Shown here in pieces: positions 3,173 through 33,415 of a DNA stretch of 33,415 bases. Position 1 is the stretch's first letter. Each line of letters starts with the position of its first letter. This stretch comes from a virus. Its lineage: Duplodnaviria; Heunggongvirae; Uroviricota; Caudoviricetes. The DNA lies in the IMG/VR virus record IMGVR_UViG_2563366922_000004; one strand, 5' to 3'. A program made the position numbers and the translations under genes. Below the pieces are notes generated by a model. It had not been told where the DNA came from and did no database searches. It was given only the letters and a program-made list of their open reading frames with translations.

Positions 3173-4472
3173 TCTCCCGCATATTGCCAGTATGGCCTTT
3201 AATGAGCCGCTGATGCTTGAACCCGCCTATGCGCGGGTTTTCTTTTGTGCGCTTGCAGGCCAGCTTGGGATCAGCCGCCTGACGGATGCGGTATCCGGCG
3301 ACAGCCTGACTGCCGGAGAGGCACCCGCGGCGCTGGCGTTATCCGTTGATGATGACGGACCACGACAGGCCCGCAGTTATCAGGTCATGAACGGCATCGC
3401 CGTGCTGCCGGTGTCCGGCACGCTGGTCAGTCGGACGCGAGCGCTGCAGCCGTATTCGGGGATGACCGGTTACAACGGCATTATCGCCCGTCTGCAACAG
3501 GCTGCCAGCGACCCGATGGTGGACGGCATTCTGCTCGATATGGATACGCCAGGCGGGATGGTGGCAGGGGCATTTGACTGCGCTGACATCATCGCCCGTG
3601 TGCGTGACATAAAGCCGGTATGGGCGCTGGCCAACGACATGAACTGCAGTGCAGGTCAGTTGCTTGCCAGTGCCGCCTCCCGGCGTCTGGTCACGCAGAC
3701 CGCCCGGACAGGCTCCATCGGCGTCATGATGGCTCACAGTAATTACGGTGCTGCGCTGGAGAAACAGGGTGTGGAAATCACGCTGATTTACAGCGGCAGC
3801 CATAAGGTGGATGGCAACCCCTACAGCCATCTTCCGGATGACGTCCGGGAGACACTGCAGTCCCGGATGGACGCAACCCGCCGGATGTTTGCACAGAAGG
3901 TGTCGGCATATACCGGCCTGTCCGTGCAGGCTGTGCTGGATACCGAGGCTGCAGTGTACAGCGGTCAGGAGGCCATTGATGCCGGACTGGCTGATGAACT
4001 TGTTAACAGTACCGATGCGATCACCGTCATGCGTGATGCACTGGATGCACGTAAATCCCGTCTCTCAGGAGGGCGAATGACCAAAGAGACTCAATCAACA
4101 ACTGTTTCAGCCACTGCTTCGCAGGCTGACGTTACTGAGGTGGTGCAAGCGACGGAGGGCGAGAACGCCAGCGCGGCGCAGCCGGACGTGAACGCGCAGA
4201 TCACCGCAGCGGTTGCGGCAGAAAACAGCCGCATTATGGGGATCCTCAACTGTGAGGAGGCTCACGGACGCGAAGAACAGGCACGCGTGCTGGCAGAAAC
4301 CCCCGGTATGACCGTGAAAACGGCCCGCCGCATTCTGGCCGCAGCACCACAGAGTGCACAGGCGCGCAGTGACACTGCGCTGGATCGTCTGATGCAGGGG
4401 GCACCGGCACCGCTGGCTGCAGGTAACCCGGCATCTGATGCCGTTAACGATTTGCTGAACACACCAGTGTAA
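3153..4472 (+). CDS. C: Head maturation protease / minor capsid protein C (439 aa), GTG start
   Basis: ORF track opens at 3039, but lambda C begins MTAELRNLPHIASMAFNEPLMLEP, which corresponds to the in-frame GTG at 3153; length from 3153 is 439 aa as in lambda; overlaps end of B. Confidence 0.88.
3867..4472 (+). CDS. Nu3: Scaffolding protein Nu3, in-frame internal start within the 3' part of C (201 aa)
   Basis: In lambda, Nu3 is the last 606 nt of C in the same frame; there is an in-frame ATG exactly 606 nt before the C stop (MDATRRMFAQKV...). Confidence 0.6.
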   Translation: MDATRRMFAQKVSAYTGLSVQAVLDTEAAVYSGQEAIDAGLADELVNSTDAITVMRDALDARKSRLSGGRMTKETQSTTVSATASQADVTEVVQATEGENASAAQPDVNAQITAAVAAENSRIMGILNCEEAHGREEQARVLAETPGMTVKTARRILAAAPQSAQARSDTALDRLMQGAPAPLAAGNPASDAVNDLLNTPV

Positions 4473-4869: not shown

Positions 4870-5145
4870 ATGTCGATGTACACAACCGCCCAACTGCTGG
4901 CGGCAAATGAGCAGAAATTTAAGTTTGATCCGCTGTTTCTGCGTCTCTTTTTCCGTGAGAGCTATCCCTTCACCACGGAGAAAGTCTATCTCTCACAAAT
5001 TCCGGGACTGGTAAACATGGCGCTGTACGTTTCGCCGATTGTTTCCGGTGAGGTTATCCGTTCCCGTGGCGGCTCCACCTCTGAATTTACGCCGGGATAT
5101 GTCAAACCCAAGCACTTAGCATGGCTTTCTGAGGCTTTCGTGTAG
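4870..5145 (+). pseudogene. E: Major capsid protein E, 5' fragment: 82 native codons then 9 insert-derived codons (LAWLSEAFV) and stop
   Basis: MSMYTTAQLLAANEQKFKFDPLFLRLFFRESYPFTTEKVYLSQIPGLVNMALYVSPIVSGEVIRSRGGSTSEFTPGYVKPKH matches lambda E residues 1-82; similarity ends abruptly at 5115/5116. Confidence 0.9.
5107..5115 (+). repeat. Left att core copy CCCAAGCAC (attL side)
   Basis: Matches the right copy CCGAAGCAT at 16152-16160 in 7 of 9 positions; both lie exactly where lambda-E homology ends and resumes. Confidence 0.6.
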
Positions 5146-5227
5146 TTGCTGGTTTTTACACTTAATCTTTTGATAATAAAGAATAAGTTTATCTGGCGCT
5201 TTCACTGAATTTTCCTCGTTATCTGTG

Positions 5228-5263
5228 TGTTGCAATCATCTCTGTATTGCAGCTTGTATTGCT
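5228..5263 (+). promoter_or_regulatory. Cluster of TGT(A/T)TTGCA direct repeats upstream of int; candidate integrase arm-type sites
   Basis: tgttgcaa (5228-5235), tgtattgca (5243-5251), tgtattgct (5255-5263); the same TGTATTGCA motif recurs twice near the other end at 16043-16063. Confidence 0.4.
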
Positions 5264-5277
5264 TTTTGGGGCTAAAA

Positions 5278-6513
5278 ATGGCTGGCGAGAACAAACTGAG
5301 CGACAAAGCGCTTAAAGGATATCTGGGGAAACCCAGAGAAAAGCAGATCACCATTGCTGATGGAAAGGGGCTTTCTATTCGTGTGAGTACTAAAGGGGCT
5401 GTGAGCTTTGTTTTCTTCTACAGGTTAGCAGGTGGCCGGGCTGCTCCGGTCTGGCTAACGTTGGGTAAATATCCTGATATGTCACTCAAACAGGCAAGGG
5501 AAAAGCGCGACGAGTGCCGTGGTTGGTTGGCTGACAAACGTGATCCGCGTATCCAGATTAAGATTCAGGCTGAAGAACGCTTAAAGCCGGTCACAGTGGA
5601 GGATGCACTAAATTACTGGTATGAAAATTACTGTAAGGTGCGTCGTAAAACTCATGCTGTAACGCTTGGCAGATTTCGAAAGCATATCTTTCCCTATATC
5701 GGTCATTTGCCCGTAAATGACACTCACCTATATGAATGGCTGGACTGTTTTGACCGAATTAAACGTAATGCACCAGTTATGGCGGCGTATGTTTTTTCTG
5801 ACACTAAATTAGCTCTTCGTTTTTGTCGGGTACGCCAGTACGCGACGTGTGATGCTTTAAAGGATTTGCGCATGAGTGATGTGGGGCAGATTGCAGGTAA
5901 GCGGGATCGGGTTCTGGATGAAGCCGAACTCGGCCAGCTCTGGAAGGCAATTTTTGTCGAGCCTGATTTAAAACTAATGTCTGAATACACGCGAAAAATG
6001 TTTGTGCTTTGTACAGTATTTGGATGTCGAATGAGTGAAGCCCGATTATCAGAATGGAGCGAATGGGATCTCGAAAGTTGGGTTTGGACTGTACCAAAAG
6101 ATCACTCAAAAACTGGTGTTGAAATCGTCAGACCAGTACCTGAAATTCTACGACAGTGGGTAACGGATGTTCACGAAGAGACAAAACATACTGGTTATGT
6201 GCTGGGAAGTCTGCGAATTAGAGAAAGCGTAAGCAAGATTGGGGGGAAAATCGGTAAACGTTTGGGCCATGAAAAACAATGGTCACTACACGACCTTAGA
6301 AGAACGCTATCTACTCATCTAAGTGATCTCGGTGTTGAATTTTATGTAGTAGAACAACTGTTAGGCCATGCGCTACCTGGCGTGGCAGGTGTTTACAATC
6401 GGAGTAAGTTTATGGCTAAAAAACTGGATGCTCTGGAACTCTGGACTACATATCTCAATAGCATCGCAGGTGCTGATTCAAAAGTGACAATCCTCAAACA
6501 AAAGGCTGGTTAA
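5278..6513 (+). CDS. int: Tyrosine recombinase / integrase (P4-like), probable ATG start at 5278
   Basis: N-terminal arm-binding-like region (GKYPDMSLKQAREKRDE) and C-terminal catalytic motifs (HDLRRT, LLGH, GVYNRS); ORF track opens at GTG 5227 but the homologous N-terminus begins MAGENKLSDKAL. Confidence 0.88.
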   Translation: MAGENKLSDKALKGYLGKPREKQITIADGKGLSIRVSTKGAVSFVFFYRLAGGRAAPVWLTLGKYPDMSLKQAREKRDECRGWLADKRDPRIQIKIQAEERLKPVTVEDALNYWYENYCKVRRKTHAVTLGRFRKHIFPYIGHLPVNDTHLYEWLDCFDRIKRNAPVMAAYVFSDTKLALRFCRVRQYATCDALKDLRMSDVGQIAGKRDRVLDEAELGQLWKAIFVEPDLKLMSEYTRKMFVLCTVFGCRMSEARLSEWSEWDLESWVWTVPKDHSKTGVEIVRPVPEILRQWVTDVHEETKHTGYVLGSLRIRESVSKIGGKIGKRLGHEKQWSLHDLRRTLSTHLSDLGVEFYVVEQLLGHALPGVAGVYNRSKFMAKKLDALELWTTYLNSIAGADSKVTILKQKAG

Positions 6514-6514
6514 C

Positions 6515-6742
6515 ATGAAAAAAATGGCAATTGTTGATAAAAAGGGTCTGGAGTACATTCCTAACATTGATCGTATGATCCGTGAGAAAGAATGTCGGGA
6601 GCTAACCACTCTTGCGAACAGCACACGCTGGAAGCTGGAGAAGGAAGGAAAATTTCCTAAGCGGATCAAGATTGGCGCTACTGCGGTAGCTTACCGTCTC
6701 TCCGAAGTTCAGGCATGGATTAGGGGGGAATGGCGGACATAA
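6515..6742 (+). CDS. alpA: AlpA-family HTH transcriptional regulator / excisionase-like protein (75 aa)
   Basis: Small protein directly after int with an AlpA-like helix-turn-helix region (ATAVAYRLSEVQAWIRGE); typical int-alpA pair of P4-like elements and PICIs. Confidence 0.8.
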   Translation: MKKMAIVDKKGLEYIPNIDRMIREKECRELTTLANSTRWKLEKEGKFPKRIKIGATAVAYRLSEVQAWIRGEWRT

Positions 6743-6778
6743 ATGTTGTAGTAAATTGTTATATAAAAGGGTGTAAGC

Positions 6779-7654
6779 ATGGCTACTCGAAAAAAAAATA
6801 GCGTAGAAATGAAAACTGTTTGTGAACTAATCATATCAAGAGATGATATGAAAGATAAAATTCAAGACAGAATTCAAAAAGGATTATTACTCCTACAGAA
6901 AAGCATAAATAACAATAGTGACTTGGAGCTGTTTAATGCTGATTACAGGAAATGGAGTGATTTTAATGCTGAGCTACTGAAGCGTAGTTTCACAAATGAT
7001 GATTTCAAAGAAGAATATGAAGGTGGGGCATTTGGTGTTATTTCATTGTACGAGACTTCCTTGGGAGAAAAAATCAGTGAGGCTACGCGTAAACTCCAGA
7101 GTAAGATAAGAAAACTAGAGTCGATTATGGAGCGACTGGAGTTAATTCCTATATCTTCCAAAGTTGTTGAAGAAAATATTGAAGTACCTCAGAGTTCAGC
7201 GGTAAAAACCAAAAAGGTATTCATTGTTCATGGAAGAGATGAAATATCAAAAACCAACTTAGAAGTGTTTTTAAGAGAAATTGGCTTAGAACCTATTGTT
7301 CTCCATAGGCAAGCTGATGTAGGTCAGACAGTGATTGAGAAATTTGAAGCAAATAGTGATGTTGGTTTCGCATTCATTCTTCTCACACCTGATGAGATCG
7401 CTTATTTATTGCCGCAAGACTCTTTACCTGATAATGAAAGAGAAAAGGAGTTACGTGCACGACCAAATGTAATGTTTGAATTTGGTTATTTCGTAGGGAA
7501 ATTAGGTCGTTCTAAGGTTTGTTGTCTATACACAGGTGATGTAGTGATTCCAAGTGATTTGAATGGTCTTATTTATAAAAAATTCAATTCTTCTATTGAA
7601 GAAGTAGCATATAGCATTATTAAAGACTTGCGAGCTACTGGTTACGCAGTTTAG
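6779..7654 (+). CDS. Two-domain protein: N-terminal coiled-coil-like region plus C-terminal TIR-like domain; candidate defence effector
   Basis: C-terminal half has the motifs I recall for bacterial TIR-like (COG4271-type) proteins: VFIVHGRD...LLTPDE...RARPNVMFEFGYFVGKLGR; the gene and its flanks are strongly AT-rich compared with neighbours. Confidence 0.55.
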   Translation: MATRKKNSVEMKTVCELIISRDDMKDKIQDRIQKGLLLLQKSINNNSDLELFNADYRKWSDFNAELLKRSFTNDDFKEEYEGGAFGVISLYETSLGEKISEATRKLQSKIRKLESIMERLELIPISSKVVEENIEVPQSSAVKTKKVFIVHGRDEISKTNLEVFLREIGLEPIVLHRQADVGQTVIEKFEANSDVGFAFILLTPDEIAYLLPQDSLPDNEREKELRARPNVMFEFGYFVGKLGRSKVCCLYTGDVVIPSDLNGLIYKKFNSSIEEVAYSIIKDLRATGYAV

Positions 7655-7683
7655 TAAATTCTTTGAACTAAAAATCTGCATAG

Positions 7684-7716
7684 ATATAGAGCCATTCGAG
7701 ATAAATGGCTCTATAT
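7684..7716. terminator. Perfect 13 bp inverted repeat with 7 nt loop between convergent genes; likely bidirectional terminator
   Basis: ATATAGAGCCATT-cgagata-AATGGCTCTATAT read directly; sits between the stop of 6779-7654 (+) and the stop of 7730-7909 (-). Confidence 0.5.
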
Positions 7717-7729
7717 GAAATATTATCTG

Positions 7730-7909
7730 TTAAATTTTGACTTCATATCCGCGTTGCTGTAGTTCTTTGCGAATAATCCTTTTAATCCAGGCTGCTAAAG
7801 ATTCGTCTCCATCTACTTGCTGTGCTTGCTCCATCAACTCCCTCAACTCAGGATCTAACCGAAACTGGAACGGAGGATTACCACGTCTTTGATTTTTGTG
7901 TGTTGACAC
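7730..7909 (-). CDS. Small Arc/MetJ-type ribbon-helix-helix DNA-binding protein (59 aa, GTG start); not in the ORF track
   Basis: Manual minus-strand translation gives (V)STHKNQRRGNPPFQFRLDPELRELMEQAQQVDGDESLAAWIKRIIRKELQQRGYEVKI, with a beta-strand then two helices as in Arc; start codon overlaps palindromes. Confidence 0.5.
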   Translation of the reverse strand: MSTHKNQRRGNPPFQFRLDPELRELMEQAQQVDGDESLAAWIKRIIRKELQQRGYEVKI

Positions 7910-7957
7910 GTCAATTACACCCGATGTAATGTGTTAATGTGTGATGACACATTACAT
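7903..7957. promoter_or_regulatory. Divergent control region: palindrome TTGAC-AC-GTCAA (7903-7914) and 10 bp inverted repeat ATGTAATGTG / CACATTACAT (7924-7933 / 7948-7957); candidate operator and promoter
   Basis: Inverted repeats read directly; TTGACA at 7903-7908 is a plausible -35 for the rightward operon; located between the RHH gene (-) and the 8040 operon (+). Confidence 0.35.
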
Positions 7958-8039
7958 ACGTGTTTAGGAAAATGCAACGCCTCGACGTGCGGGAACACCA
8001 TCGAGGCGTCTAACCAACCCGTTAAATGAGGTAACGATT

Positions 8040-8405
8040 ATGGCTGGAACACAGCATACCCAAACTCACCCTAAATTTATATACACCTTTCTGGCACTAC
8101 ACCACGACCGCATGGCAGATGGAGCAACTACGGTACATGTAGCCGCTGACACGCTGGTTGATGCCCGCAAGATGGTTAAGGAGATGGGCTATACTGCGGC
8201 TTTCTGGAAAGGGCGTGAAGAAAACACGCTGTTTATTCAGAAATGCGAAAACAATTTCATCTGGCGTTTTATCGCCCTGAGCACCGCACAACCGCGCGTG
8301 ATTCACATCGTGGCCACCAGCGAACAGGAAGCACGCCAGCAATCCCCGGCTGGCTGCGTGATGGTATTCGCCGCCCGTATTCGTCAGGGGGTATGCCATG
8401 CCTGA
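8040..8405 (+). CDS. Hypothetical protein; C-terminal part resembles Icd-like (cell-division-inhibitor-like) small proteins of P4-like elements
   Basis: C-terminal segment FIWRFIALSTAQPRVIHIVATSEQEARQQ...VFAARIRQG resembles the Icd-like pattern from memory; GAGG Shine-Dalgarno about 9 nt upstream of ATG 8040; first gene of a + operon. Confidence 0.45.
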   Translation: MAGTQHTQTHPKFIYTFLALHHDRMADGATTVHVAADTLVDARKMVKEMGYTAAFWKGREENTLFIQKCENNFIWRFIALSTAQPRVIHIVATSEQEARQQSPAGCVMVFAARIRQGVCHA

Positions 8406-8718
8406 TATGTCAAATTACCAGTACCTGATTAATCCGCATTTTAACTGTGAGCATGATATTGCTAAAAAGGTTTATTCCGCTGCGGATGGGGCTACTGACA
8501 ATATATCAATGGCTGTTGCGTCAATTGGTAGCCTGATGTGGCATGCGTCAGAAAATGAGGACTATGACGAAAAGGCTATGCGCATTGATATGGGTAATAT
8601 CGGTTTGTTACTGGCAATGCTTGGGCAGTTTGATATTTCGTTACGGTGCACCATTGAAAATGCCACAGATGCATTAAATGCCATAAAGAAAGCGAATACT
8701 GATTCAAATCGGGGATAA
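8398..8718 (+). CDS. Hypothetical protein (106 aa)
   Basis: ORF with ATGCCTGA start/stop overlap with the upstream gene (translational coupling); no recognisable family. Confidence 0.45.
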   Translation: MPDMSNYQYLINPHFNCEHDIAKKVYSAADGATDNISMAVASIGSLMWHASENEDYDEKAMRIDMGNIGLLLAMLGQFDISLRCTIENATDALNAIKKANTDSNRG

Positions 8719-8724
8719 ATAATC

Positions 8725-9024
8725 ATGAGAACATATTTATCTGGCTTGACTGCCAGCGGTTATGCACACCCCAAAATTATCCCCGGCGCTATTTATCTGG
8801 ATAAGAACGGTAACAGAGTAACGGTAAAAGAACTGATGTTTGACCGTGTGTATTTTATTCGTGATGGCTATTCATTTCATAGTTCGCTGAACGTGGAGAT
8901 CTTTATTAGCAGATTCAGGCGGGAAATCCCGCTTTCCAGAAATAACCATGTGTCATGTATGGATGTTGATAAAAAACTACAGGAACTGAAAAACATGATT
9001 GCCGCGTGGAGAGAGCAGAAATGA
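8725..9024 (+). CDS. Hypothetical protein (99 aa)
   Basis: ORF in operon context immediately upstream of the primase gene; no recognisable family. Confidence 0.45.
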   Translation: MRTYLSGLTASGYAHPKIIPGAIYLDKNGNRVTVKELMFDRVYFIRDGYSFHSSLNVEIFISRFRREIPLSRNNHVSCMDVDKKLQELKNMIAAWREQK

Positions 9025-10838
9025 AAAAAGCGCCAAATTTAAAACACCAGCCGCGTGACAAAATGACGGAAGTCATCATTTTTGCGGGTAGTGATGCGTG
9101 GGCACATGCGAAACAGTGGCAGGAACAGGACGGGCGACTGGCTGGCGATAACGTGCCACCTGTCTGGCTTGGAGAGCAACAACTTGCCGAACTGGACAAC
9201 CTGCAAATCGTACCGGACGGACGCTATCGCGTGCGTCTCTATCAGGCGGGGTTATTGCGTCCGGGGCTTGTTAATACCATCGGGCAGAAACTGGCAGTGG
9301 CAGGTGTCAGGGATGCTGATTATTACCCTGAAGGAATGCACAGCCAGAAACGGGAGAACTGGCGCGAATATCTGGAACGTGAACGGGCAGAGCAGGCGGA
9401 AAAGAAAAAGGTAGTTGAACTGCCTGTAAAGAAAAAAGAGCGGGTAAAAGACGATAACGCTTCATCACTGGCGCTTAACCAGATGGGAGCAAGTCAACGC
9501 GGCGAAGTTCTCCTGGCACATTATGGCGGTGAACTGGCGATTCATGCTGACTCTGACACTGTTCACCATTACAACGGCGTTGTATGGGAGCCAGTACAGG
9601 ATAAAGAATTACAGCGAGCTATGGCACAGATTTTCATTGATGCGGAGATCAGCTATTCGCAGAACGCCATTAAATCGGCGGTCGATACCATGAAGTTAAG
9701 TTTGCCTGTAATGGGGAATACAGCCCGTAACCTGATTGGATTCAGTAACGGGGTATTTGATACCAGAACAGGTAATTTTCGGGAGCATAACAAAAACGAC
9801 TGGTTGTTAATTGCCAGTGAATTACCTTTCAGCCCACCAGCAGAGGGGGAAACGCTGGCAACACATGCGCCGAATTTCTGGAAGTGGTTACGCCGTTCGG
9901 TGGCTGAGAATGACCGCAAGGCGGATCGCGTACTGGCTGCATTATTCATGGTGCTGGCGAACCGGTACGACTGGCAGTTATTCATTGAGGTAACAGGTCC
10001 AGGGGGAAGTGGTAAAAGCGTGATGGCGGAGATTTGCACCATGCTGGCGGGTAAGGCCAACACAGTATCGGCAAGCATGAAGGCGCTGGAAGATGCAAGG
10101 GAACGCGCGTTAGTGGTTGGCTTTTCGCTGATTATCATGCCGGATATGACCCGCTACGCTGGTGATGGGGCAGGGATTAAGGCTATTACAGGCGGTGACA
10201 AGGTGGCAATTGACCCGAAACACAAAGCCCCCTACTCAACGCGTATTCCGGCAGTAGTGCTGGCGGTTAACAATAACGCCATGTCATTCAGTGACCGCAG
10301 CGGGGGGATCTCACGTCGTCGGGTGATATTCAATTTTTCGGAAGTTGTACCGGAGAACGAACGCGATCCAATGCTGGCGGAAAAAATAGAAGGTGAGTTG
10401 GCGGTAGTGATTCGCCATCTGCTTACACGGTTTGCTGACCAGGACGAAGCCAGACGCCTGTTATATGAGCAGCAGAAATCTGAAGAAGCACTGGCGATAA
10501 AGCGAGAGGGGGATTCGCTGGTGGACTTCTGCGGCTATCTCATGGCGTCGGTAATGTGTGATGGCCTGTTAGTGGGTAATGCTGAAATTGTGCCATTCAG
10601 CCCACGCAGGTATCTCTATCATGCCTATCTGGCTTATATGAGGGCACATGGGTTTGGTAAACCTGTAACACTGACGCGCTTCGGTAAAGATATGCCGGGG
10701 GCAATGGCGGAATATGGCAGGGAGTATATGAAACGGAAAACGAAGCACGGTTTGCGTTCAAACGTGACACTGACGGAGGAATCAGAAGACTGGATGCCAT
10801 CATGTGTATCGGTCACTAATGACGATAGCAAAAATTAA
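9006..10838 (+). CDS. Replication protein: primase / SF3-type helicase (P4-family), start 9006 or 9021
   Basis: Walker A motif VTGPGGSGKS and Walker B-like SLIIMPD; 610 aa; immediately followed by an iteron array. Confidence 0.82.
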   Translation: MERAEMKKAPNLKHQPRDKMTEVIIFAGSDAWAHAKQWQEQDGRLAGDNVPPVWLGEQQLAELDNLQIVPDGRYRVRLYQAGLLRPGLVNTIGQKLAVAGVRDADYYPEGMHSQKRENWREYLERERAEQAEKKKVVELPVKKKERVKDDNASSLALNQMGASQRGEVLLAHYGGELAIHADSDTVHHYNGVVWEPVQDKELQRAMAQIFIDAEISYSQNAIKSAVDTMKLSLPVMGNTARNLIGFSNGVFDTRTGNFREHNKNDWLLIASELPFSPPAEGETLATHAPNFWKWLRRSVAENDRKADRVLAALFMVLANRYDWQLFIEVTGPGGSGKSVMAEICTMLAGKANTVSASMKALEDARERALVVGFSLIIMPDMTRYAGDGAGIKAITGGDKVAIDPKHKAPYSTRIPAVVLAVNNNAMSFSDRSGGISRRRVIFNFSEVVPENERDPMLAEKIEGELAVVIRHLLTRFADQDEARRLLYEQQKSEEALAIKREGDSLVDFCGYLMASVMCDGLLVGNAEIVPFSPRRYLYHAYLAYMRAHGFGKPVTLTRFGKDMPGAMAEYGREYMKRKTKHGLRSNVTLTEESEDWMPSCVSVTNDDSKN

Positions 10839-10850
10839 ACTTATGGAATA

Positions 10851-11075
10851 ACTGTTCACCACTGTTCACCCTGTCATAAATATCTTTTATATCAGTATAT
10901 TATAGGGTGAACAGTTATTTATGAACTGTTCACCAAACTATTCACTGTTCACCTTTTTGATTGTTTATTGAGCTTCAAGGGTGAACAGTGGTGAACAGTT
11001 GGTGAATAGTTTTTGTGAAACTGTTCACCCCTTAACATTATGAATTAAAAGAGAAAATATCAAAAGGTGAACAGG
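10851..11075. repeat. Iteron-type replication origin: about 10 copies of CTGTTCACC / GGTGAACAG in both orientations with an AT-rich centre
   Basis: Copies read directly at about 10852, 10862, 10906, 10926, 10945, 10979, 10990, 11000 (variant GGTGAATAG), 11021 and 11066; directly downstream of the primase gene. Confidence 0.7.
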
Positions 11076-11125
11076 TGAAGGGTTAAAACGCAAAAATTTT
11101 AATTTACTGCTGTGAGATAAAGCCT

Positions 11126-11371
11126 ATGACAGCGAAGCACACAAAAAAATCACAATCGCACGCCCTTGATTTGACGGAACACTGGTTAAGGGTGTCGATA
11201 AAAATCATTGACCGCAACGCCGGGGAAGGATATGCGAAAGCACATCCCGAACTGATTAGCGCATTCATGACAACGGCAGCTGCAAACTTTGCCACGCTGA
11301 CAGAACGGGAGATTGCCGAAGCGGAACAGGTGACAACCATCAACGTTAAAACCGGAGAGCAGACAGCATGA
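11126..11371 (+). CDS. Hypothetical protein (81 aa)
   Basis: ORF whose stop overlaps the start of the downstream SSB-like gene (ATGA); no recognisable family. Confidence 0.35.
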   Translation: MTAKHTKKSQSHALDLTEHWLRVSIKIIDRNAGEGYAKAHPELISAFMTTAAANFATLTEREIAEAEQVTTINVKTGEQTA

Positions 11372-11790
11372 CAGCACAGATAGCGGCTTACGGACGGCTG
11401 GTGGCTGACCCGCAGTTAAAGACCACCAGCAAGGGTACACAAATGACGATGGCGAGTATGGCGGTCCCCCTTCCGTGCAGCCAGGCAGATGACGGAACGG
11501 CGCCGATGTGGTTATCCGTCCTGGCGTTTGGCAGACAGGCCGACGCACTGGCAAAACACCACAAAGGCGAACTGGTGAGCGTGGCGGGTAACATGCAGGT
11601 AAGCCAGTGGACAGGCCAGAACGGCGAAACGCGGCAGGGCTGGCAGGTTATCGCAGACAGTGTAATCAGTGCCAGAACGGCGCGACCGGGCGGCAAAAAA
11701 GGTCAACAGGGCCAGGCTACTGACGCACTGAACAGGGCAAAACAACAGTCGGGGAATGATGATCCGTACGGCGATAATATACCGTTTTAA
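11368..11790 (+). CDS. ssb: Single-stranded DNA-binding protein (SSB-like, 140 aa)
   Basis: OB-fold-like N-terminal region and acidic C-terminal tail ending DDPYGDNIPF, resembling the E. coli SSB tail DFDDDIPF. Confidence 0.65.
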   Translation: MTAQIAAYGRLVADPQLKTTSKGTQMTMASMAVPLPCSQADDGTAPMWLSVLAFGRQADALAKHHKGELVSVAGNMQVSQWTGQNGETRQGWQVIADSVISARTARPGGKKGQQGQATDALNRAKQQSGNDDPYGDNIPF

Positions 11791-11807
11791 ATTCTGCAAA
11801 TAAAAAA

Positions 11808-11836
11808 ATGCCGGAAGAAAATAGATTTTCCGGCAT
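11808..11836. other. 9 bp stem hairpin (ATGCCGGAA...TTCCGGCAT) preceded by an A7 run; possible terminator after ssb
   Basis: Inverted repeat read directly. Confidence 0.3.
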
Positions 11837-12001
11837 GCTACATAAATCCCGACCAAAGGAAGTAAATACATTAACACGAATTATCAGCACTGAAGTTGTC
11901 ACGGCATATTTTATACAACATTGCACTTGGTTGCATGTATTCGCATAGCAGACATCGGTAATAGAATATATTCACAATTATTTGTAATGAATGTAAAGAG
12001 G

Positions 12002-13048
12002 ATGAGTATGGTTGATTTATATTCGCCTACACAGCTTGTGCAGGTGGCTAATGCTGAAGATGTGCAAAAAAAATTAAATGCGTTGTTTACCAGTTTGTTT
12101 TTCACTCGCTCGGTAATGTTTGAATCGAGAGACATTATTCTTGATACGATCGACGATCCAAATATCCCGATCGCGGCGTTTTGCTCTCCTATGGTGGGCA
12201 GTAAAGTTTCACGAGATGAGGGATACGAATCAAAAACAATTCGCCCTGGCTATATGAAACCGAAAAGCAGCATTGATCCAAATAAGTTAGCTGTGCGCCC
12301 TGCTGGTGTGTCACCTGAGCAATACAATGCTTTTGGGGCGCGTAATATTAAAGTTAAACAGGCGATTGTAAATCAGGCTAAAGCTATTCGTACACGTATT
12401 GAATGGCTTGCTGTTCAGGCAATCACAACGGGGAAAAATATCATTGAGGGCGATGGTATTGAACGTTATGAGCTGGACTGGAATATAAAACCACAAAATA
12501 TCATCACTCAGTCTGGCGGTACTGAGTGGTCAGGTAAGGATAAAGAAACTTTTGATCCAAATGATGATATTGAGAGCTACGCAGAATTTAGTGAGGGCGT
12601 CACTAATATCATCATTATGGGCGGTAATGTATGGAAGAAATACCGTTCATTCAGAGCGATAAAAGAGGCTCTGGATACCCGTCGTGGTTCTAATTCCGAA
12701 CTGGAAACGGCCCTTAAAGACCTTGGTGATTCGGTGAGTTTTAAAGGGTATATGGGCGATGTTGCGATTGTTGTTTACAGCGGGCGTTATACCGACGAGG
12801 ACGGAACTGAAAAACATTTCCTTGATCCTGATTTGATGGTGCTTGGCAATACGGCTCTTCAGGGGATTGTCGCTTATGGCGGTATTCAGGATCCGGAGCT
12901 AATCCGGATGGGGCTGACTAAAGCCGAACTTGCACCGAAAAACTATATTGTGCCTGGTGATCCGGCTATTGAATATGTGCAGACACATTCAGCACCACAG
13001 CCAATACCGGCCCGTATCAATCGTTTTGTTACCGTTCGCATTGGCTAA
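12002..13048 (+). CDS. Insert-encoded major capsid protein, diverged homolog of lambda gpE (about 349 aa)
   Basis: MSMVDLYSPTQLVQVANAEDV... aligns along its length with lambda E (shared motifs ITQSGGTEWS, LDTRRGSNSELETA, GDVAIVVYSG) but is clearly diverged; start chosen by analogy with lambda E (MSM...), ORF track opens at 11921. Confidence 0.85.
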   Translation: MSMVDLYSPTQLVQVANAEDVQKKLNALFTSLFFTRSVMFESRDIILDTIDDPNIPIAAFCSPMVGSKVSRDEGYESKTIRPGYMKPKSSIDPNKLAVRPAGVSPEQYNAFGARNIKVKQAIVNQAKAIRTRIEWLAVQAITTGKNIIEGDGIERYELDWNIKPQNIITQSGGTEWSGKDKETFDPNDDIESYAEFSEGVTNIIIMGGNVWKKYRSFRAIKEALDTRRGSNSELETALKDLGDSVSFKGYMGDVAIVVYSGRYTDEDGTEKHFLDPDLMVLGNTALQGIVAYGGIQDPELIRMGLTKAELAPKNYIVPGDPAIEYVQTHSAPQPIPARINRFVTVRIG

Positions 13049-13058
13049 GGGGGGAGCA

Positions 13059-13400
13059 ATGGCTACTCATTACACTGAACTCATGGCTGGCACTGAAGCA
13101 CTGGTTACTACGCTGGGGATATTTTCAGCTAATAAAGGGGTAATTCCTGCATTTACGCCACTGATGCAGGAAGATACAACAGGTGCACTGGTGGTATGGG
13201 ATGGTACGAGTGCAGGTAAAGCTGTTTATGTTTCCGCTGTACAACTCGATACAGCGAAAAAAACACAGGCTCAGGTCTATAAGACAGGTGTCTTAAATGT
13301 TGATGCTCTTAACTGGCCTGAGTCAGTAAAAGAACTGTCAGTAAAGGTTGCAGCGTTTGTTGGCTCAGGTATTTCTGTTCAGCCGCTGGCTCGTGTGTAA
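13059..13400 (+). CDS. Insert-encoded head decoration protein, diverged homolog of lambda gpD (113 aa)
   Basis: MATHYTELMAGTEALVTT...ALVVWDGTSAGKAV...YKTGVLN parallels lambda D ([13 protein letters not shown]...YKSGTF); start ATG 13059 preceded by GGGGAG. Confidence 0.78.
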   Translation: MATHYTELMAGTEALVTTLGIFSANKGVIPAFTPLMQEDTTGALVVWDGTSAGKAVYVSAVQLDTAKKTQAQVYKTGVLNVDALNWPESVKELSVKVAAFVGSGISVQPLARV

Positions 13401-13411
13401 AGGGGGATACA

Positions 13412-13795
13412 ATGCAGAATCATTACAATGACCTTAAGCCAATTGCCGAAATGATGTATCCGGATCCAGCAGTAGAGGAATTAAAGGCTATTGCTGACAA
13501 AATGCGTTTAAGCGAGCGTCTTGTTGATATGAATCAGGTGATGGAACTTACAACCCTGAGTCGTCGTACACTGCTAAACCTTGAAGCACGTGGAGAGTTC
13601 CCCGAACGCGTGCAGGTTACGGAAGGGCGTAAGGCCTGGTATTTAAGCGAAGTGATCGACTGGATAAACAATATTCCGCGCGCTTCTGAATATTGCCGCG
13701 TACCTGTCCCAAAAAAGCCAGATGCGGCGCTATGCCTCAAGATTGATCGTGTACGCCGCAATGCACGGGATGGTCGCTATAAGCTGATTGGTTGA
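13412..13795 (+). CDS. HTH protein (AlpA/MerR-like winged helix region), immediately upstream of cos; possible packaging accessory or late regulator
   Basis: Central segment MELTTLSRRTLLNLEARGEFPERVQVTEGRKAWYLSEVIDWINN resembles AlpA-type HTH; function not assignable from sequence. Confidence 0.45.
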   Translation: MQNHYNDLKPIAEMMYPDPAVEELKAIADKMRLSERLVDMNQVMELTTLSRRTLLNLEARGEFPERVQVTEGRKAWYLSEVIDWINNIPRASEYCRVPVPKKPDAALCLKIDRVRRNARDGRYKLIG

Positions 13796-13839
13796 TGAAA
13801 TTAGGGCCCGTTCTGGCTGGCGGGTCCTTTCCGGCGATC

Positions 13840-13890
13840 CGGCAGGTTACGGGGCGTCAGGCGCGCGGGTTTTCGCTATTTATGAGCATT
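13840..13890. promoter_or_regulatory. cos site of the insert (cosN-like): GTTACG-GGGCGTCAGGCG-CGCGGGTTTTCGCTATTTATGA
   Basis: Flanking bases match my recollection of lambda cosN (GTTACG / CGCGGGTTTTCGCTATTTATGA) while the 12 nt between them (13852-13863) differs from lambda's GGGCGGCGACCT; lies just upstream of a Nu1-like gene, as in lambda. Confidence 0.6.
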
Positions 13891-14011
13891 TTAAGGGGAC
13901 TGGTGGTGGTTTTGTTGTTCGCTATATCTGTATGAATAATAAGAGAAAAATACAATCAATACACCAACCTGAAACAGTAATTAAGTTGTGGTATCAATGA
14001 AATTACACCTG

Positions 14012-14539
14012 ATGAACAAAAAAAACATGGCAAAAAGTTGCCGTGTAAGCGCCACTGCGTTCGATAAGTGGGGAGTGATTCCCGTCGAGCGTAAGGGCCG
14101 TGAGGCGTTCTATGATGTTGCCAGTGTAATAGATAATCGGGTTAACAATGCAATCAGCCAGATTACAAACGAAACGGGCGATATTGATGACGATGAACTT
14201 TTACGCGTCAGGATCAGATTACTGACAGCACAGGCAGAGGCGCAGGAGCTTAAAAACGAGCGCGAACGCGGCGACGTTATTGATACAGAGTTTTGTATGT
14301 ATGTTCTTTCCAAACTGGCGAGTCAGATTTCATCTATCATGGACAGCCTGCCGCTTACCATGCAAAGGCGCTTCCCACAGATGACTCCGGCTATGCTGGA
14401 TGGACTTAAAAAGGAAGTGGCTAAAGCCTGTAATGCCAGTGCCGGCGTTGCTGACAACCTCCCACAGATACTGGCTGATTATCTGATGGAAAGTACAGGA
14501 AACGTACCGGATAAGTTGCAGCTGAATAAGGATAAGTAA
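14012..14539 (+). CDS. Terminase small subunit, Nu1-like, with divergent N-terminal DNA-binding region (start 14012, or 13997/14027)
   Basis: C-terminal two-thirds parallels lambda Nu1 (RLLTAQAEAQELKN...TEFCMYVLSKLASQISSIMDSLPLTMQRRFP vs lambda RLTRAQADAQELKN...TAFCTFVLSRIAGEIASILDGLPLSVQRRFP); N-terminus differs. Confidence 0.78.
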   Translation: MNKKNMAKSCRVSATAFDKWGVIPVERKGREAFYDVASVIDNRVNNAISQITNETGDIDDDELLRVRIRLLTAQAEAQELKNERERGDVIDTEFCMYVLSKLASQISSIMDSLPLTMQRRFPQMTPAMLDGLKKEVAKACNASAGVADNLPQILADYLMESTGNVPDKLQLNKDK

Positions 14540-14550
14540 CGTAGTACGCT

Positions 14551-14826
14551 ATGACTGAATCCGAACTACTGAAAGTAATCTGCCATGCTGGTGGAGTCAG
14601 CCACCAGCATGACGAACAGACCACGCAGCCGGGCAGTGTCACCGCTGAAAATTACGCTCGTGTGGTTGCTGAGGTTATGTGGCGTGACGGTATAGAACTG
14701 AACGGACAGGATTGCTTAGTCATCCGCACCAAAGTGCTGGCTATACTGGCAGCTAGGCGGAGGCAGGGACAACGCCAGAACGTTGCATCGTACCAGTGGA
14801 AGAAGCCTGACAGACTGCGGCGATAA
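14551..14826 (+). CDS. Hypothetical protein (91 aa)
   Basis: ORF directly downstream of the small terminase gene; no recognisable family. Confidence 0.4.
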   Translation: MTESELLKVICHAGGVSHQHDEQTTQPGSVTAENYARVVAEVMWRDGIELNGQDCLVIRTKVLAILAARRRQGQRQNVASYQWKKPDRLRR

Positions 14827-15122
14827 CTCTTTGATTTTCTCGACGGCCCCAAAATGGGCCTTACCATAGCCAGCTAATAAATGAGCAAGCCTCAAAAGTG
14901 AGGTTTGTGGCCGTTTGGCCTATTCATATGCTAACTCGTTGATATTCCTGACGACGCAAATTTACGCCTTGTGGCTGGTAGTCGAATTGCAAATTTGCAA
15001 CTCAACTATGAAACTACAGGTAGTTTGGGTAGTAAAAGCAACACACTGATTTTGGGGCTTCTTCGCGATACCTAATATTATGGTATCGGTGGAAGAGATA
15101 TCGTTTCTCATAGGTTAGCACC

Positions 15123-15142
15123 GAGGGCGGAGTTCCGCCCTC
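15123..15142. other. Perfect inverted repeat GAGGGCGGA-gt-TCCGCCCTC in the ORF-free spacer downstream of the HEPN gene
   Basis: Read directly; no clear U-run on either strand, so terminator function is uncertain. Confidence 0.3.
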
Positions 15143-15228
15143 ATCGAAAAATTGCTTACGAGTCGTCAAAATAAATTAATCGACTGAGTATAATGATTAA
15201 CTAATTGCTCGTGTTACTTCATTATACG

Positions 15229-15990
15229 TTATTTCCCATCTTTAAGGTTTAACCAAGTGTTAATTAAAAAAAGAGCCATTGAGCCTGATAAATTTACTGC
15301 AAGTTCGGCATGCCTTGGGGATGGCTTAATTGATGAGCTGTTCGTTCCATGTGCATCACCGAGTTTATTACGAAGAGTACCTAACCCATTTACAACTGCA
15401 GAACAACCGCCGAGAATTTGTTTGAAGATATTTTCAGTATGTTGGTCGGCAGATAGGTTAAGTTCTTTTGAAAGAGTTTTATAAAGCTCTGACATTTCAA
15501 TATTTTTATTATTATACTGAATGCCCATATCATCAAGAATGTGTTTGCAAACTGTTTCAAGAAGTGTTCTTGCGGAGGTTATCGCACCATCCGGATCTGT
15601 ATGGCGCCGTTCAAGTGCTTTTATCCAAACGGCGTGGACTCCATCCTCGTTAAACTTTCTTAATACATCAGATATGTCTTCATCCGCTGGAGCTTTATTT
15701 TTCCCTTCTAGATAGTCCAGCATCGGCTGAAATGCCTTATAAATCAAATCTCTCCGGGGGGCATACTTTTCAGTCTTTTTTATAAATCCCCAAAATTCTT
15801 TTAGTGAGCGATTAGTTCTCACAAACTCTGGTAATAGCTGATGTAAAGGAGGATTTTGTAAGAAATATGTTCTTAGAAGCAAATAATCATTATTAGCTTC
15901 ATCCTGGGCTCCTGTAGCTCTTGCAATTAGTATGTTTTGAAGCGCTACTGCGCGCTCTAGGTCATTTTGAAGGGTATCTATAATATTCAT
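15229..15990 (-). CDS. HEPN-domain protein of the Abi_C (abortive infection C-terminal) type, 253 aa
   Basis: Contains R-x6-H motif in LRNKLGDAHG preceded by ...ITSARTLLETVCKHILDDMGIQY...LYKTLSKELNL...ENIFKQILGGCSAVVNGLGT, matching my recollection of Abi_C; only minus-strand gene in the insert besides the RHH; AT-rich. Confidence 0.65.
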   Translation of the reverse strand: MNIIDTLQNDLERAVALQNILIARATGAQDEANNDYLLLRTYFLQNPPLHQLLPEFVRTNRSLKEFWGFIKKTEKYAPRRDLIYKAFQPMLDYLEGKNKAPADEDISDVLRKFNEDGVHAVWIKALERRHTDPDGAITSARTLLETVCKHILDDMGIQYNNKNIEMSELYKTLSKELNLSADQHTENIFKQILGGCSAVVNGLGTLRNKLGDAHGTNSSSIKPSPRHAELAVNLSGSMALFLINTWLNLKDGK

Positions 15991-16042
15991 AACAAATCTT
16001 TATTCACTTCATTTGTGGGTTGATAATTGAATGGTTTGTACA

Positions 16043-16063
16043 TTGATTTCTGTGTATTGCAGT
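16043..16063 (+). promoter_or_regulatory. Two TGTATTGCA direct repeats near the right end; candidate integrase arm-type sites
   Basis: Same 9-mer as at 5243-5263 near the left end; 12 bp spacing. Confidence 0.4.
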
Positions 16064-16151
16064 GTGTATTGCAACATAGCCATTCAGGTAGAGATTATGC
16101 TCTATTTTTCCTCTTATATCATTCACATACTTACACCATTGACTCATGTAG

Positions 16152-16160
16152 CCGAAGCAT
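16152..16160 (+). repeat. Right att core copy CCGAAGCAT (attR side; E codons P-K-H)
   Basis: Direct repeat partner of 5107-5115; immediately followed by E codon 83 (gaa gtg aat = EVN). Confidence 0.6.
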
Positions 16161-16940
16161 GAAGTGAATCCGCAGATGACCCTGCGTCGCCTGCCGGATG
16201 AAGAACCGCAGAATCTGGCGGACCCGGCTTACCGCCGCCGTCGCATCATCATGCAGAACATGCGTGACGAAGAGCTGGCCATTGCTCAGGTCGAAGAGAT
16301 GCAGGCAGTTTCTGCCGTGCTTAAGGGCAAATACACCATGACCGGTGAAGCCTTCGATCCGGTTGAGGTGGATATGGGCCGCAGTGAGGAGAATAACATC
16401 ACGCAGTCCGGCGGCACGGAGTGGAGCAAGCGTGACAAGTCCACGTATGACCCGACCGACGATATCGAAGCCTACGCGCTGAACGCCAGCGGTGTGGTGA
16501 ATATCATCGTGTTCGATCCGAAAGGCTGGGCGCTGTTCCGTTCCTTCAAAGCCGTCAAGGAGAAGCTGGATACCCGTCGTGGCTCTAATTCCGAGCTGGA
16601 GACAGCGGTGAAAGACCTGGGCAAAGCGGTGTCCTATAAGGGGATGTATGGCGATGTGGCCATCGTCGTGTATTCCGGACAGTACGTGGAAAACGGCGTC
16701 AAAAAGAACTTCCTGCCGGACAACACGATGGTGCTGGGGAACACTCAGGCACGCGGTCTGCGCACCTATGGCTGCATTCAGGATGCGGACGCACAGCGCG
16801 AAGGCATTAACGCCTCTGCCCGTTACCCGAAAAACTGGGTGACCACCGGCGATCCGGCGCGTGAGTTCACCATGATTCAGTCAGCACCGCTGATGCTGCT
16901 GGCTGACCCTGATGAGTTCGTGTCCGTACAACTGGCGTAA
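16161..16940 (+). pseudogene. E: Major capsid protein E, 3' fragment (codons 83-341, beginning EVNPQMTLRRLPD...)
   Basis: Translation matches lambda E from residue 83 to the C-terminal ...FVSVQLA; 82 + 259 = 341 codons, the full length of lambda E. Confidence 0.9.
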
Positions 16941-32831: not shown

Positions 32832-33415
32832 TGGCATTCAGAATGAGTGAACAACCACGGACCATAAAAATTTATAATCTGCTGGCCGGAACTAATGAAT
32901 TTATTGGTGAAGGTGACGCATATATTCCGCCTCATACAGGTCTGCCAGCAAACAGCACCTATATTGCACCGCCAGATATTCCTGCTGGCTTTGTGGCTGT
33001 TTTCAACAGTGATGAGGCATCGTGGCATCTCGTTGAAGACCATCGGGGTAAAACGGTTTATGACGTAGCGTCAGGGGGCGAGTTATTTATTTCTGAACTC
33101 GGTCCGTTACCGGAAAATGTTACCTGGTTATCGCCGGAAGGGGAGTTTCAGAAGTGGAACGGCACAGCCTGGGTGAAAGATGCAGAAGCAGAAAAACTGT
33201 TCCGGATCCGAGAGGCGGAAGAAATAAAAAACAGCCTGATGCAGGTAGCCAGTGAGCATATTGCGCCACTTCAGGATGCTGTAGATCTGGAAATCGCAAC
33301 GGAGGAAGAAACCTCATTGCTGGAAGCCTGGAAAAAGTATCGGGTGTTGCTGAACCGTGTTGATACATCAACTGCACCTGATATTGAGTGGCCTACGAAC
33401 CCTGTCAGGGAGTAA
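32831..33415 (+). CDS. tfa: Tail fibre assembly protein Tfa (194 aa); stop codon is the last 3 bases of the window
   Basis: [44 protein letters not shown]... matches lambda Tfa; ATG overlaps the stf stop (ATAATGG). Confidence 0.85.

Follow-up and report, generated by a model that had tools for sequence, protein, structure and literature searches.

The systems closest to the locus described here are found in phage P1, in the satellite P4 and in phage-inducible chromosomal islands (PICIs) of Escherichia coli. P1 encodes Icd, which according to its database record and the literature is a reversible cell-division inhibitor required for ant expression, with expressing cells becoming filamentous. 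In P4, Kil is lethal to cells, and translation of Eta prevents termination. In a locus of ECOR61 that was reported as a 'prophage-encoded' programmed-cell-death system, growth arrest is triggered by phage, and a 121-amino-acid Icd-like protein was named as its likely effector (Silas et al. 2023, preprint 10.1101/2023.04.06.535777); its 366-nucleotide gene was recovered from a suppressor screen and overlaps the next open reading frame (ORF) by 8 nucleotides (10.1101/2023.04.06.535777). Six linked genes including the primase gene were needed to rebuild the effect, which was abolished by removal of the Icd-like gene. Comparable behaviour was seen for a P4 satellite of ECOR15, where the hits fell in orf106, the primase gene and the Icd-like (Eta) gene (10.1101/2023.04.06.535777). 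Among the PICIs, AlpA-driven induction and toxic uncontrolled replication were demonstrated for EcCICFT073. Furthermore, RgdR was reported in all analysed E. coli PICIs (PMC6092414). RgdR (ECs1581) activates LEE1 and the type III secretion system (T3SS), represses motility and binds DNA non-specifically; C1493 likewise activates LEE1 and represses motility, and residue 20 of the RGD motif is functionally important (Flockhart et al. 2011, PMC3378721). Against this background, positions 8040-9024 of a 33,415-nucleotide stretch of DNA (IMG/VR virus record IMGVR_UViG_2563366922_000004, Caudoviricetes), referred to as the window, were analysed. They hold three small genes, ORF1 to ORF3, upstream of a primase gene, and are interpreted, on balance and by analogy to the systems above, as the conserved front of the early (replication) operon of a PICI, encoding a putative arrest protein, a cassette protein and a putative DNA-binding protein, followed by the primase.

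All genes of this chain are located on the plus strand, namely ORF1 (8040-8405; 121 amino acids, isoelectric point (pI) 9.0), ORF2 (8398-8718; 106 amino acids, acidic, pI 4.6), ORF3 (8725-9024; 99 amino acids, basic, pI 9.7) and, as the final coupled gene, the primase-helicase gene (9021-10838), which matches D5_N, DUF5906 and Pox_D5 in Pfam and PHROG. As read from the sequence, ORF1 and ORF2 overlap by 8 nucleotides (ATGCCTGA). ORF2 is separated from ORF3 by a spacer of 6 nucleotides, with the Shine-Dalgarno motif GGGGA upstream of ORF3, and the primase ATG at 9021 overlaps the ORF3 stop codon by 4 nucleotides (ATGA), which is also the start chosen by the annotation pipeline PGAP in identical genomes. 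A first-pass annotation, made from the letters alone, had placed three ORFs of these lengths between a switch and the primase and had proposed an operon that opens with ORF1 and continues through coupled small ORFs into the primase. Coordinates, PGAP annotation and conservation agree with the placement, and the overlaps and the short spacer agree with the proposed operon.

Many E. coli chromosomes contain positions 7650-9100 of the window at 100% identity, and all three ORFs are annotated by PGAP in the identical genomes. In total, parts of this 1.45-kb stretch were found in 1288 of 5426 complete E. coli genomes, and the ORF2 gene was found full-length in 474 of them at a nucleotide identity of at least 90% (nearly all at least 95%), with up to six copies per genome. 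The ratio of nonsynonymous to synonymous substitutions (dN/dS) of 0.14-0.44 indicates purifying selection on ORF1, ORF2 and ORF3. Because of the PGAP annotation, the occurrence of ORF2 in 474 genomes and these dN/dS values, the three ORFs are regarded as genuine genes rather than chance ORFs. Their layout, consisting of a 106-amino-acid ORF2, 6 nucleotides, a 99-amino-acid ORF and ATGA into the replicase gene, is invariant in at least 70 of 76 IMG/VR loci, and an Icd-like ORF lies upstream of ORF2 in all 76. The conservation across related elements on which the first-pass annotation had made its reading depend is therefore present, with the same order and spacing in at least 70 independent loci. 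An antisense ORF at 8097-8399 was dropped from consideration, as it has neither an annotation nor a family and the sense frame is under purifying selection. A tblastn search of 50,697 phage genomes returned no match for ORF2 and ORF3, and for ORF1 only one 16.5-kb record named 'induced prophage'. Since matches were almost absent from this collection, the three genes appear to be satellite-borne and not phage-borne.

Residues 73-116 of ORF1 match the NCBIfam model NF033153 ('Icd-like') with 77.8 bits (cutoff 25), as compared to 52.6 bits for P1 Icd and 73.9 bits for the P4 Eta/Kil ORF, which bears out the proposed resemblance of the ORF1 C-terminus to Icd-like proteins of P4-type elements. Pairwise alignment of ORF1 with P1 Icd gave 40% identity over 42 amino acids (E 2e-6). 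The N-terminal half of ORF1 reached 28.7 bits against a purpose-built hidden Markov model of short Icd-like proteins, including their N-terminal HTxHPQ leader. It also matched the Icd-like end of phrog_6928 (positions 140-184) and aligned weakly with the C-terminal half of ORF1 itself and with P1 Icd. Moreover, dN/dS values determined from seven alleles were 0.23 for the N-terminal and 0.14 for the C-terminal half. Based on these matches and on the selection acting on both halves, ORF1 is read as a tandem duplication composed of a degenerate N-terminal copy (residues 2 to about 62) and a canonical Icd-like C-terminal copy (residues 73-116). Homologues of the 121-amino-acid form share 65-96% identity with ORF1 and come from E. 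coli and Salmonella; the form is present in approximately 164 complete E. coli genomes. Most islands sharing the downstream genes have an Icd-like form of 65-67 amino acids in its place, namely 75 of the 76 IMG/VR loci and several further related loci. In some metagenome and run assemblies, in-frame fusions of the Icd-like protein with ORF2 (...ARIRQGCAMPDMS...; P0001, P0002 and P0136) were encountered, which could represent sequencing frameshifts or true fusions at the 8-nucleotide overlap.

As expected for a member of the Icd family, ORF1 is the first cistron of an early operon and is coupled to the next gene by its overlap of 8 nucleotides. In P1, whose immI operon is arranged as c4-icd-ant, Icd shares the NF033153 domain and likewise is the leading cistron of an early or immunity operon, overlapping the next gene (icd and ant1 by ATGA). 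P1 Icd comprises 73 amino acids, whereas ORF1 has the predicted 121-amino-acid duplicated form; a C4-type antisense RNA is present in P1 and none is detectable upstream of ORF1; and icd is followed by an antirepressor gene, whereas ORF1 is followed by genes for the cassette protein, the DUF4222 protein and the primase. The old 'cI ORF' of P4 (Eta, with the nested Kil of 65 amino acids) consists of an Ash domain (PF10554) and an Icd-like domain, which explains the label 'transcriptional repressor' of its PHROG family. Like ORF1, it carries the Icd-like domain at its C-terminus and opens an operon, the left operon of P4, which ends in the alpha primase gene, with the small ORFs epsilon, orf151 and orf106 in between. 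It differs in that its N-terminal extension is the Ash domain, whereas that of ORF1 is probably a second Icd-like copy, and in that P4 is controlled by the CI RNA and termination. P4 epsilon, orf151 and orf106 were dissimilar to ORF2 and ORF3 in BLASTP comparisons. The ECOR61 locus resembles the present one in the 121-amino-acid Icd-like form and in gene geometry, the likeness of ORF1 being drawn from length, annotation and geometry only, and differs in the Sakai-type cassettes of 61 and 63 amino acids that follow in place of ORF2. By analogy to its relatives P1 Icd and P4 Kil, ORF1 would inhibit division or growth of the host cell.

ORF3, for which the first-pass annotation had named no recognisable family, belongs by its profile matches to the RgdR/DUF4222 family. 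Residues 16-67 reached 61.1 bits against the Pfam model DUF4222 (PF13973; threshold 27), to which RgdR matches with 82 bits, and ORF3 and RgdR (ECs_1581) are 31% identical over their full length (E 1e-12). Further common features of ORF3, RgdR from O-island 51/Sp7 and C1493 from EcCICFT073 are the length of 99 amino acids, the DUF4222 domain and the position directly upstream of the island primase gene with an overlap of 4 nucleotides. In contrast, identity of RgdR and C1493 to ORF3 amounts to 31-37%, and R20-G21-D22 of RgdR reads P20-G21-A22 in ORF3, with G21 alone being invariant in the family alignment. The dN/dS value of ORF3 is 0.44.

For ORF2, the statement that no family is recognisable holds with respect to Pfam and NCBIfam, which returned no match, and fails with respect to PHROG, since ORF2 matches phrog_15327 over its full length with 238 bits. 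This family is small and includes remote members: when 1.84 billion representatives were searched exhaustively with a profile, 21 proteins were identified in total, among them nine of 96-105 amino acids at 23-30% identity and one at 40%, with a gap-free core and the conserved residues G44, M47, A50, Y56, D64 and G69. One search for related loci in species-representative genomes returned no relative. An AlphaFold2 model predicted from 15 diverse sequences shows a helical hairpin (helices 19-51 and 58-104) with a mean confidence (pLDDT) of 80.8; a model based on five close sequences had a pLDDT of 50 and was unusable. Comparison of the former model with PDB and BFVD using Foldseek yielded only helical hairpins of a generic kind, for instance EsxB and UvsY, none of them at E<0.001, and a search of solved-structure sequences returned noise only for ORF1, ORF2 and ORF3. 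Thus, the sensitive profile and structure searches suggested in the first-pass annotation provided families for ORF1 and ORF3 and no informative fold neighbour for ORF2. ORF2 follows an Icd-like gene in all 83 contexts examined. Remote homologues occupy the same slot in satellites with other replicases (AAA_25, DUF927); one of them directly follows an Icd-like ORF with an overlap of 8 nucleotides, and others are located one to three small ORFs further downstream. Based on sequence and the predicted fold, ORF2 is assigned to a narrow, uncharacterised family of acidic helical-hairpin proteins encoded in early operons of satellites and some prophages. BLASTP detected no similarity of ORF2 to the small cassette proteins of Sakai and CFT073, and a paralogous relationship to these or to P4 epsilon, orf151 and orf106 was therefore discarded.

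Upstream of ORF1, a 59-amino-acid regulator of the ribbon-helix-helix (RHH) type (YlcI/YnfO family) is encoded divergently at 7730-7909 on the minus strand, as indicated by a weak match to NF041551, an Arc-like repressor family in PHROG and its PGAP name. The gene is also present in related PICIs, and its product is the protein side of the switch to which the first-pass annotation had referred. A perfect hairpin of 13 bp with a 7-nucleotide loop (7684-7716) is located between the gene for the TIR-domain protein on the plus strand and the RHH gene on the minus strand, and probably represents a terminator acting in both directions, by which the int-alpA unit and the Icd-like operon are kept apart. 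Because this hairpin separates the int-alpA-TIR unit from the RHH gene, the Icd-like gene would open an operon of its own. The predicted promoter/operator region (7897-7959, plus strand) features a -35 element TTGACA (7903-7908), a -10 element TGTAAT (7925-7930), repeated TGTGTGnTGACAC boxes and an 11-nucleotide inverted repeat (7924-7934 and 7947-7957); a promoter scan of the region did not list the promoter at 7903-7930. In at least 40 related leaders, the -35 element TTGACA is kept and the flanking inverted repeats vary by island, which suggests many operator/repressor specificities paired with the divergent RHH gene. Examples of the varying repeats from the aligned leaders of loci L030-L105 are GTGTTCAACAC, TACGTACGTA, GGTAATTAC and GTGCGCACA.

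The putative transcript leader between promoter and ORF1 is structured. Alignment, RNAalifold consensus and single-sequence folding predict a first hairpin at 7977-8009 and a second one at 8020-8036, the latter carrying the Shine-Dalgarno motif GAGG (8028-8031) in its loop; the near-invariant motif CTAACCA (8010-8016) is located single-stranded between them. All three features lie on the plus strand. In order to evaluate covariation, 33 distinct PICI leaders were aligned and their RNAalifold consensus was compared to 500 shuffles and to slid controls. Covariation was strong: 99.8% of the cells were paired, and in seven pairs both partners change, with no pair changing on one side alone. None of the 500 shuffles reached the observed values, and slid controls fell to 26-47% paired. 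The single-sequence fold of the leader reproduced both hairpins. No Rfam family matches the leader, and within the window there is no second or complementary copy of the CTAACCA motif. The segment 7977-8036 is therefore described as a conserved, predicted two-hairpin leader that is uncatalogued in Rfam.

The first-pass annotation had compared ORF1 to proteins of P4-type elements. By its annotated gene content and a published configuration, the element carrying ORF1 to ORF3 is an EcCICFT073-type PICI of about 11 kb. It extends from approximately 5112 to 16155 of the window and lies within a lambda-like prophage, the major capsid gene of which is split by the insertion. In an annotated identical copy, its genes encode an integrase, AlpA, a TIR-domain protein and the divergent small RHH protein (YlcI/YnfO), followed by ORF1-ORF3, the primase, a small ORF, SSB, a lambda-E-like capsid protein, a decoration protein, a helix-turn-helix protein, TerS and an Abi protein. 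The island thus shows the features of gram-negative PICIs, namely co-directional int, alpA and primase genes, a size within 10-20 kb, capsid cargo and insertion in a prophage late gene. The assignment is supported by Pfam matches for AlpA and the primase, and gene order agrees with the model PICI EcCICFT073 and with Sakai Sp7/OI-51. The genes sid, delta, psu and epsilon, by which P4-type satellites are recognised, were not among the annotated island genes, and the primase scored 95.1 bits against TIGR01613 (P4 alpha type), below the cutoff of 108.7; for these two reasons, the island is not considered a P4-type satellite. Moreover, Rfam searches at the gathering threshold and at E<=10 returned neither a C4/CI RNA nor isrK upstream of ORF1.

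Insertion of such an island in a prophage capsid gene is an already published configuration, namely the helper-embedded PICI configuration '11capE' with the site E:Phage_cap_E:80 (Mageeney et al. 2023, PMC10111431). The present island likewise is integrated at codon ~80 within a capsid gene resembling lambda E, and it shares with both 11capE and EcCICFT073 the four-zone organisation and the same pair of capsid and decoration genes. It differs from both in its cargo, which here consists of a TIR/PDC-S35 gene and an AbiJ-like gene. EcCICFT073 furthermore has four small ORFs where the present island has the single ORF2 cassette, and a short Icd-like form in contrast to the long form of ORF1. The flanking parts of the interrupted capsid gene are located at approximately 4870-5115 and 16150-16940, the lambda E homologue being interrupted after ...GYVKPKH, and the island brings its own E-like capsid and decoration genes. 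The repeat at the island junctions is imperfect (CCCAAGCAC versus CCGAAGCAT).

Taken as the early operon of this PICI, the locus may function as follows. Transcription would start from the promoter overlapping the repeated operators beside the divergent RHH gene, pass the two-hairpin leader and continue through the four cistrons of ORF1, ORF2, ORF3 and the primase. Translation of ORF1 would open the coupled chain, and expression of ORF2, ORF3 and the primase would thereby be gated at a constant ratio. ORF1 itself may arrest division or growth of the host once the island has been induced or the switch has been tripped by a protein of a foreign phage, and the arrested cell could either be kept as a factory or be sacrificed. 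ORF2 probably binds to, or modulates, either ORF1 or a target from the host or a phage, which is the least certain step. ORF3 would serve as a DNA-binding co-factor of low specificity for replication or transcription of the island, and some alleles would affect host genes as a side effect.

Several points weigh against this interpretation, all mechanistic steps of which are proposed by analogy. Since no C4/CI/isrK-type RNA is detectable, the analogy to gating in P1 and P4 draws on the coupling geometry and the leader. The equation of ORF1 with the ECOR61 protein is based on length, annotation and gene geometry only. In ECOR61 itself, transposon hits downstream and the need for six genes imply that the Icd-like protein alone is insufficient for toxicity (10.1101/2023.04.06.535777). 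Furthermore, two remote ORF2 homologues in prophage early regions adjoin S24-type repressors and have no Icd-like ORF upstream, which weakens an obligate partnership of ORF1 and ORF2. ORF3 lacks the RGD motif and is merely 31% identical to RgdR, and its linkage to the N-terminal domain of the replicase, described below, is explicable by simple adjacency. With these points taken into account, the early-operon interpretation is still judged to be somewhat probable.

The slot that separates the Icd-like gene from the DUF4222 gene bears on an alternative, in which the small proteins, chiefly ORF2, are fast-swapping inhibitors directed at defence systems of the host or at functions of helper or competitor phages, and the Icd-like and DUF4222 genes flank a hotspot of accessory genes; helper-interference and anti-defence roles had also been considered in the first-pass annotation. 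Depending on the island, this slot holds from one to at least four unrelated small proteins of various PHROG families, mostly acidic (pI 4.4-5.6), between the basic Icd-like and DUF4222 proteins. Downstream of the 121-amino-acid Icd homologues P0020, P0022, P0024 and P0025, other cassette sets are found. Slot genes are joined by a recurring junction composed of a Shine-Dalgarno motif and ATGnnTRA, with start and stop codons overlapping by 8 nucleotides; it is located at 8390-8405 in the window, at 3691-3698 in the related locus L002 and at 4001-4008 in L011, and recurs in L014, L022, L028 and L107. As a consequence of this junction, many cassette proteins end in '-HA'. The junction may be a coupling device and at the same time a recombination joint, and conserved junctions of this kind could favour the cassette exchange that the alternative demands. 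In line with it are also the dN/dS values of 0.39-0.64, which are moderately high for short genes, and the distant ORF2 relatives in strings of small early prophage genes beside CI-type repressors. However, ORF2 is not hypervariable, its protein identity across the 76 IMG/VR loci being 91-100% with a dN/dS of 0.39; PADLOC models, which represent known anti-phage defence systems, returned no match for ORF1, ORF2 or ORF3 at E<=0.01; and ORF2 has no informative fold match and is tied to no target. Published work on the relatives points to growth or division arrest (Icd, Kil, ECOR61) and to host transcription (RgdR), not to anti-defence. A role of ORF2 in helper interference or anti-defence is possible and has no support yet, and the alternative as a whole is considered unlikely.

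The replicase genes downstream of ORF3 bear on a second alternative, that of a pure replication accessory, in which ORF2 and ORF3 act as co-factors of the primase-helicase in origin recognition, loading or regulation, and ORF1 does no more than delay division during island replication, with none of them serving in defence or host regulation. In every locus examined, the DUF4222 gene immediately precedes the replicase gene with an overlap of 4 nucleotides. Replicases whose catalytic modules are unrelated (D5_N, DUF927 or AAA_25) are all preceded by one identical DUF4222 allele and have one N-terminal domain in common (approximately 80-150 amino acids, phrog_2850-like, without a Pfam family), which is encoded at 9021-9470 in the window and at approximately 5209-5450 in the related loci L022-L027, always after the DUF4222 gene. 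The conserved unit therefore appears to consist of DUF4222 plus the N-terminal domain of the replicase, a pairing that could reflect a common function or merely tight linkage. That DUF4222 abuts this domain irrespective of the catalytic module argues for a replication accessory, as do the tight translational coupling into the primase, the DNA binding of RgdR and the presence of another basic protein of about 112-122 amino acids before the replicase in satellites without DUF4222. In contrast, ORF2-type cassettes are interchangeable and are missing from many islands with the same primase, so that ORF2 is unlikely to be an essential replication factor; RgdR measurably affects host genes; and the ECOR61 data link the operon to phage-triggered growth arrest. 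A role confined to replication is accordingly held to be improbable.

A more speculative proposal treats ORF1 and the ORF2 of its overlapping frame as a pair of toxin and modulator, or of effector and sensor. The operon would then also serve in abortive infection, set off by proteins that foreign phages encode. Shuffling of cassettes at the ATGnnTRA-joined slot would vary the range of what is sensed or neutralised, and the covarying leader would be an undescribed RNA element setting the threshold. An abortive-infection reading of the early operon is hinted at by the ECOR61 data, and the proposal in its full form is regarded as a long shot. Finally, it is very doubtful that ORF3 is a regulator of host virulence or behaviour that mainly reprogrammes host transcription (T3SS, motility) for the benefit of the lysogen as RgdR might, since the activation of LEE1 and repression of motility by RgdR/ECs1581 and C1493, of which ORF3 is a full-length homologue, are set against an identity of 31% only, PGA in place of RGD, an operon that should stay silent before it is induced, and occurrence of the family in many strains without the enterocyte effacement locus (LEE).

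Among the remaining genes of the island, the TIR-domain protein (6779-7654, plus strand) matches the PADLOC candidate system PDC-S35 with 224 bits as well as CAP12/PycTIR in Pfam, and an AbiJ-like protein is encoded at 15229-15990 on the minus strand (75 bits). Both genes likely represent defence cargo of the island. Far outside the island, the Rfam family IS009 (RF02111) was matched at 33174-33372 (plus strand) with 227.8 bits.

The early-operon interpretation set out above does not overturn current views, and the finding is mostly ordinary in that ORF1 and ORF3 belong to known and partly characterised families, with ORF2 alone being uncharacterised. What is gained is the recognition of two families and a corrected element type. 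Smaller leads come from the proposed duplication in the Icd-like protein, the narrow family of ORF2, the conserved cassette junction and the uncatalogued structured leader. Among complete E. coli genomes, between about a tenth and a quarter carry the chain of Icd-like gene, small ORF, DUF4222 gene and replicase gene, and its small proteins have hardly been studied despite this frequency. At stake is also whether the acidic proteins exchanged at the slot act as modulators or as factors against phages or defence systems. As the locus falls into one class with the ECOR61 locus and RgdR, it bears on how PICIs may arrest the growth of their hosts and how this arrest would be coupled to replication.

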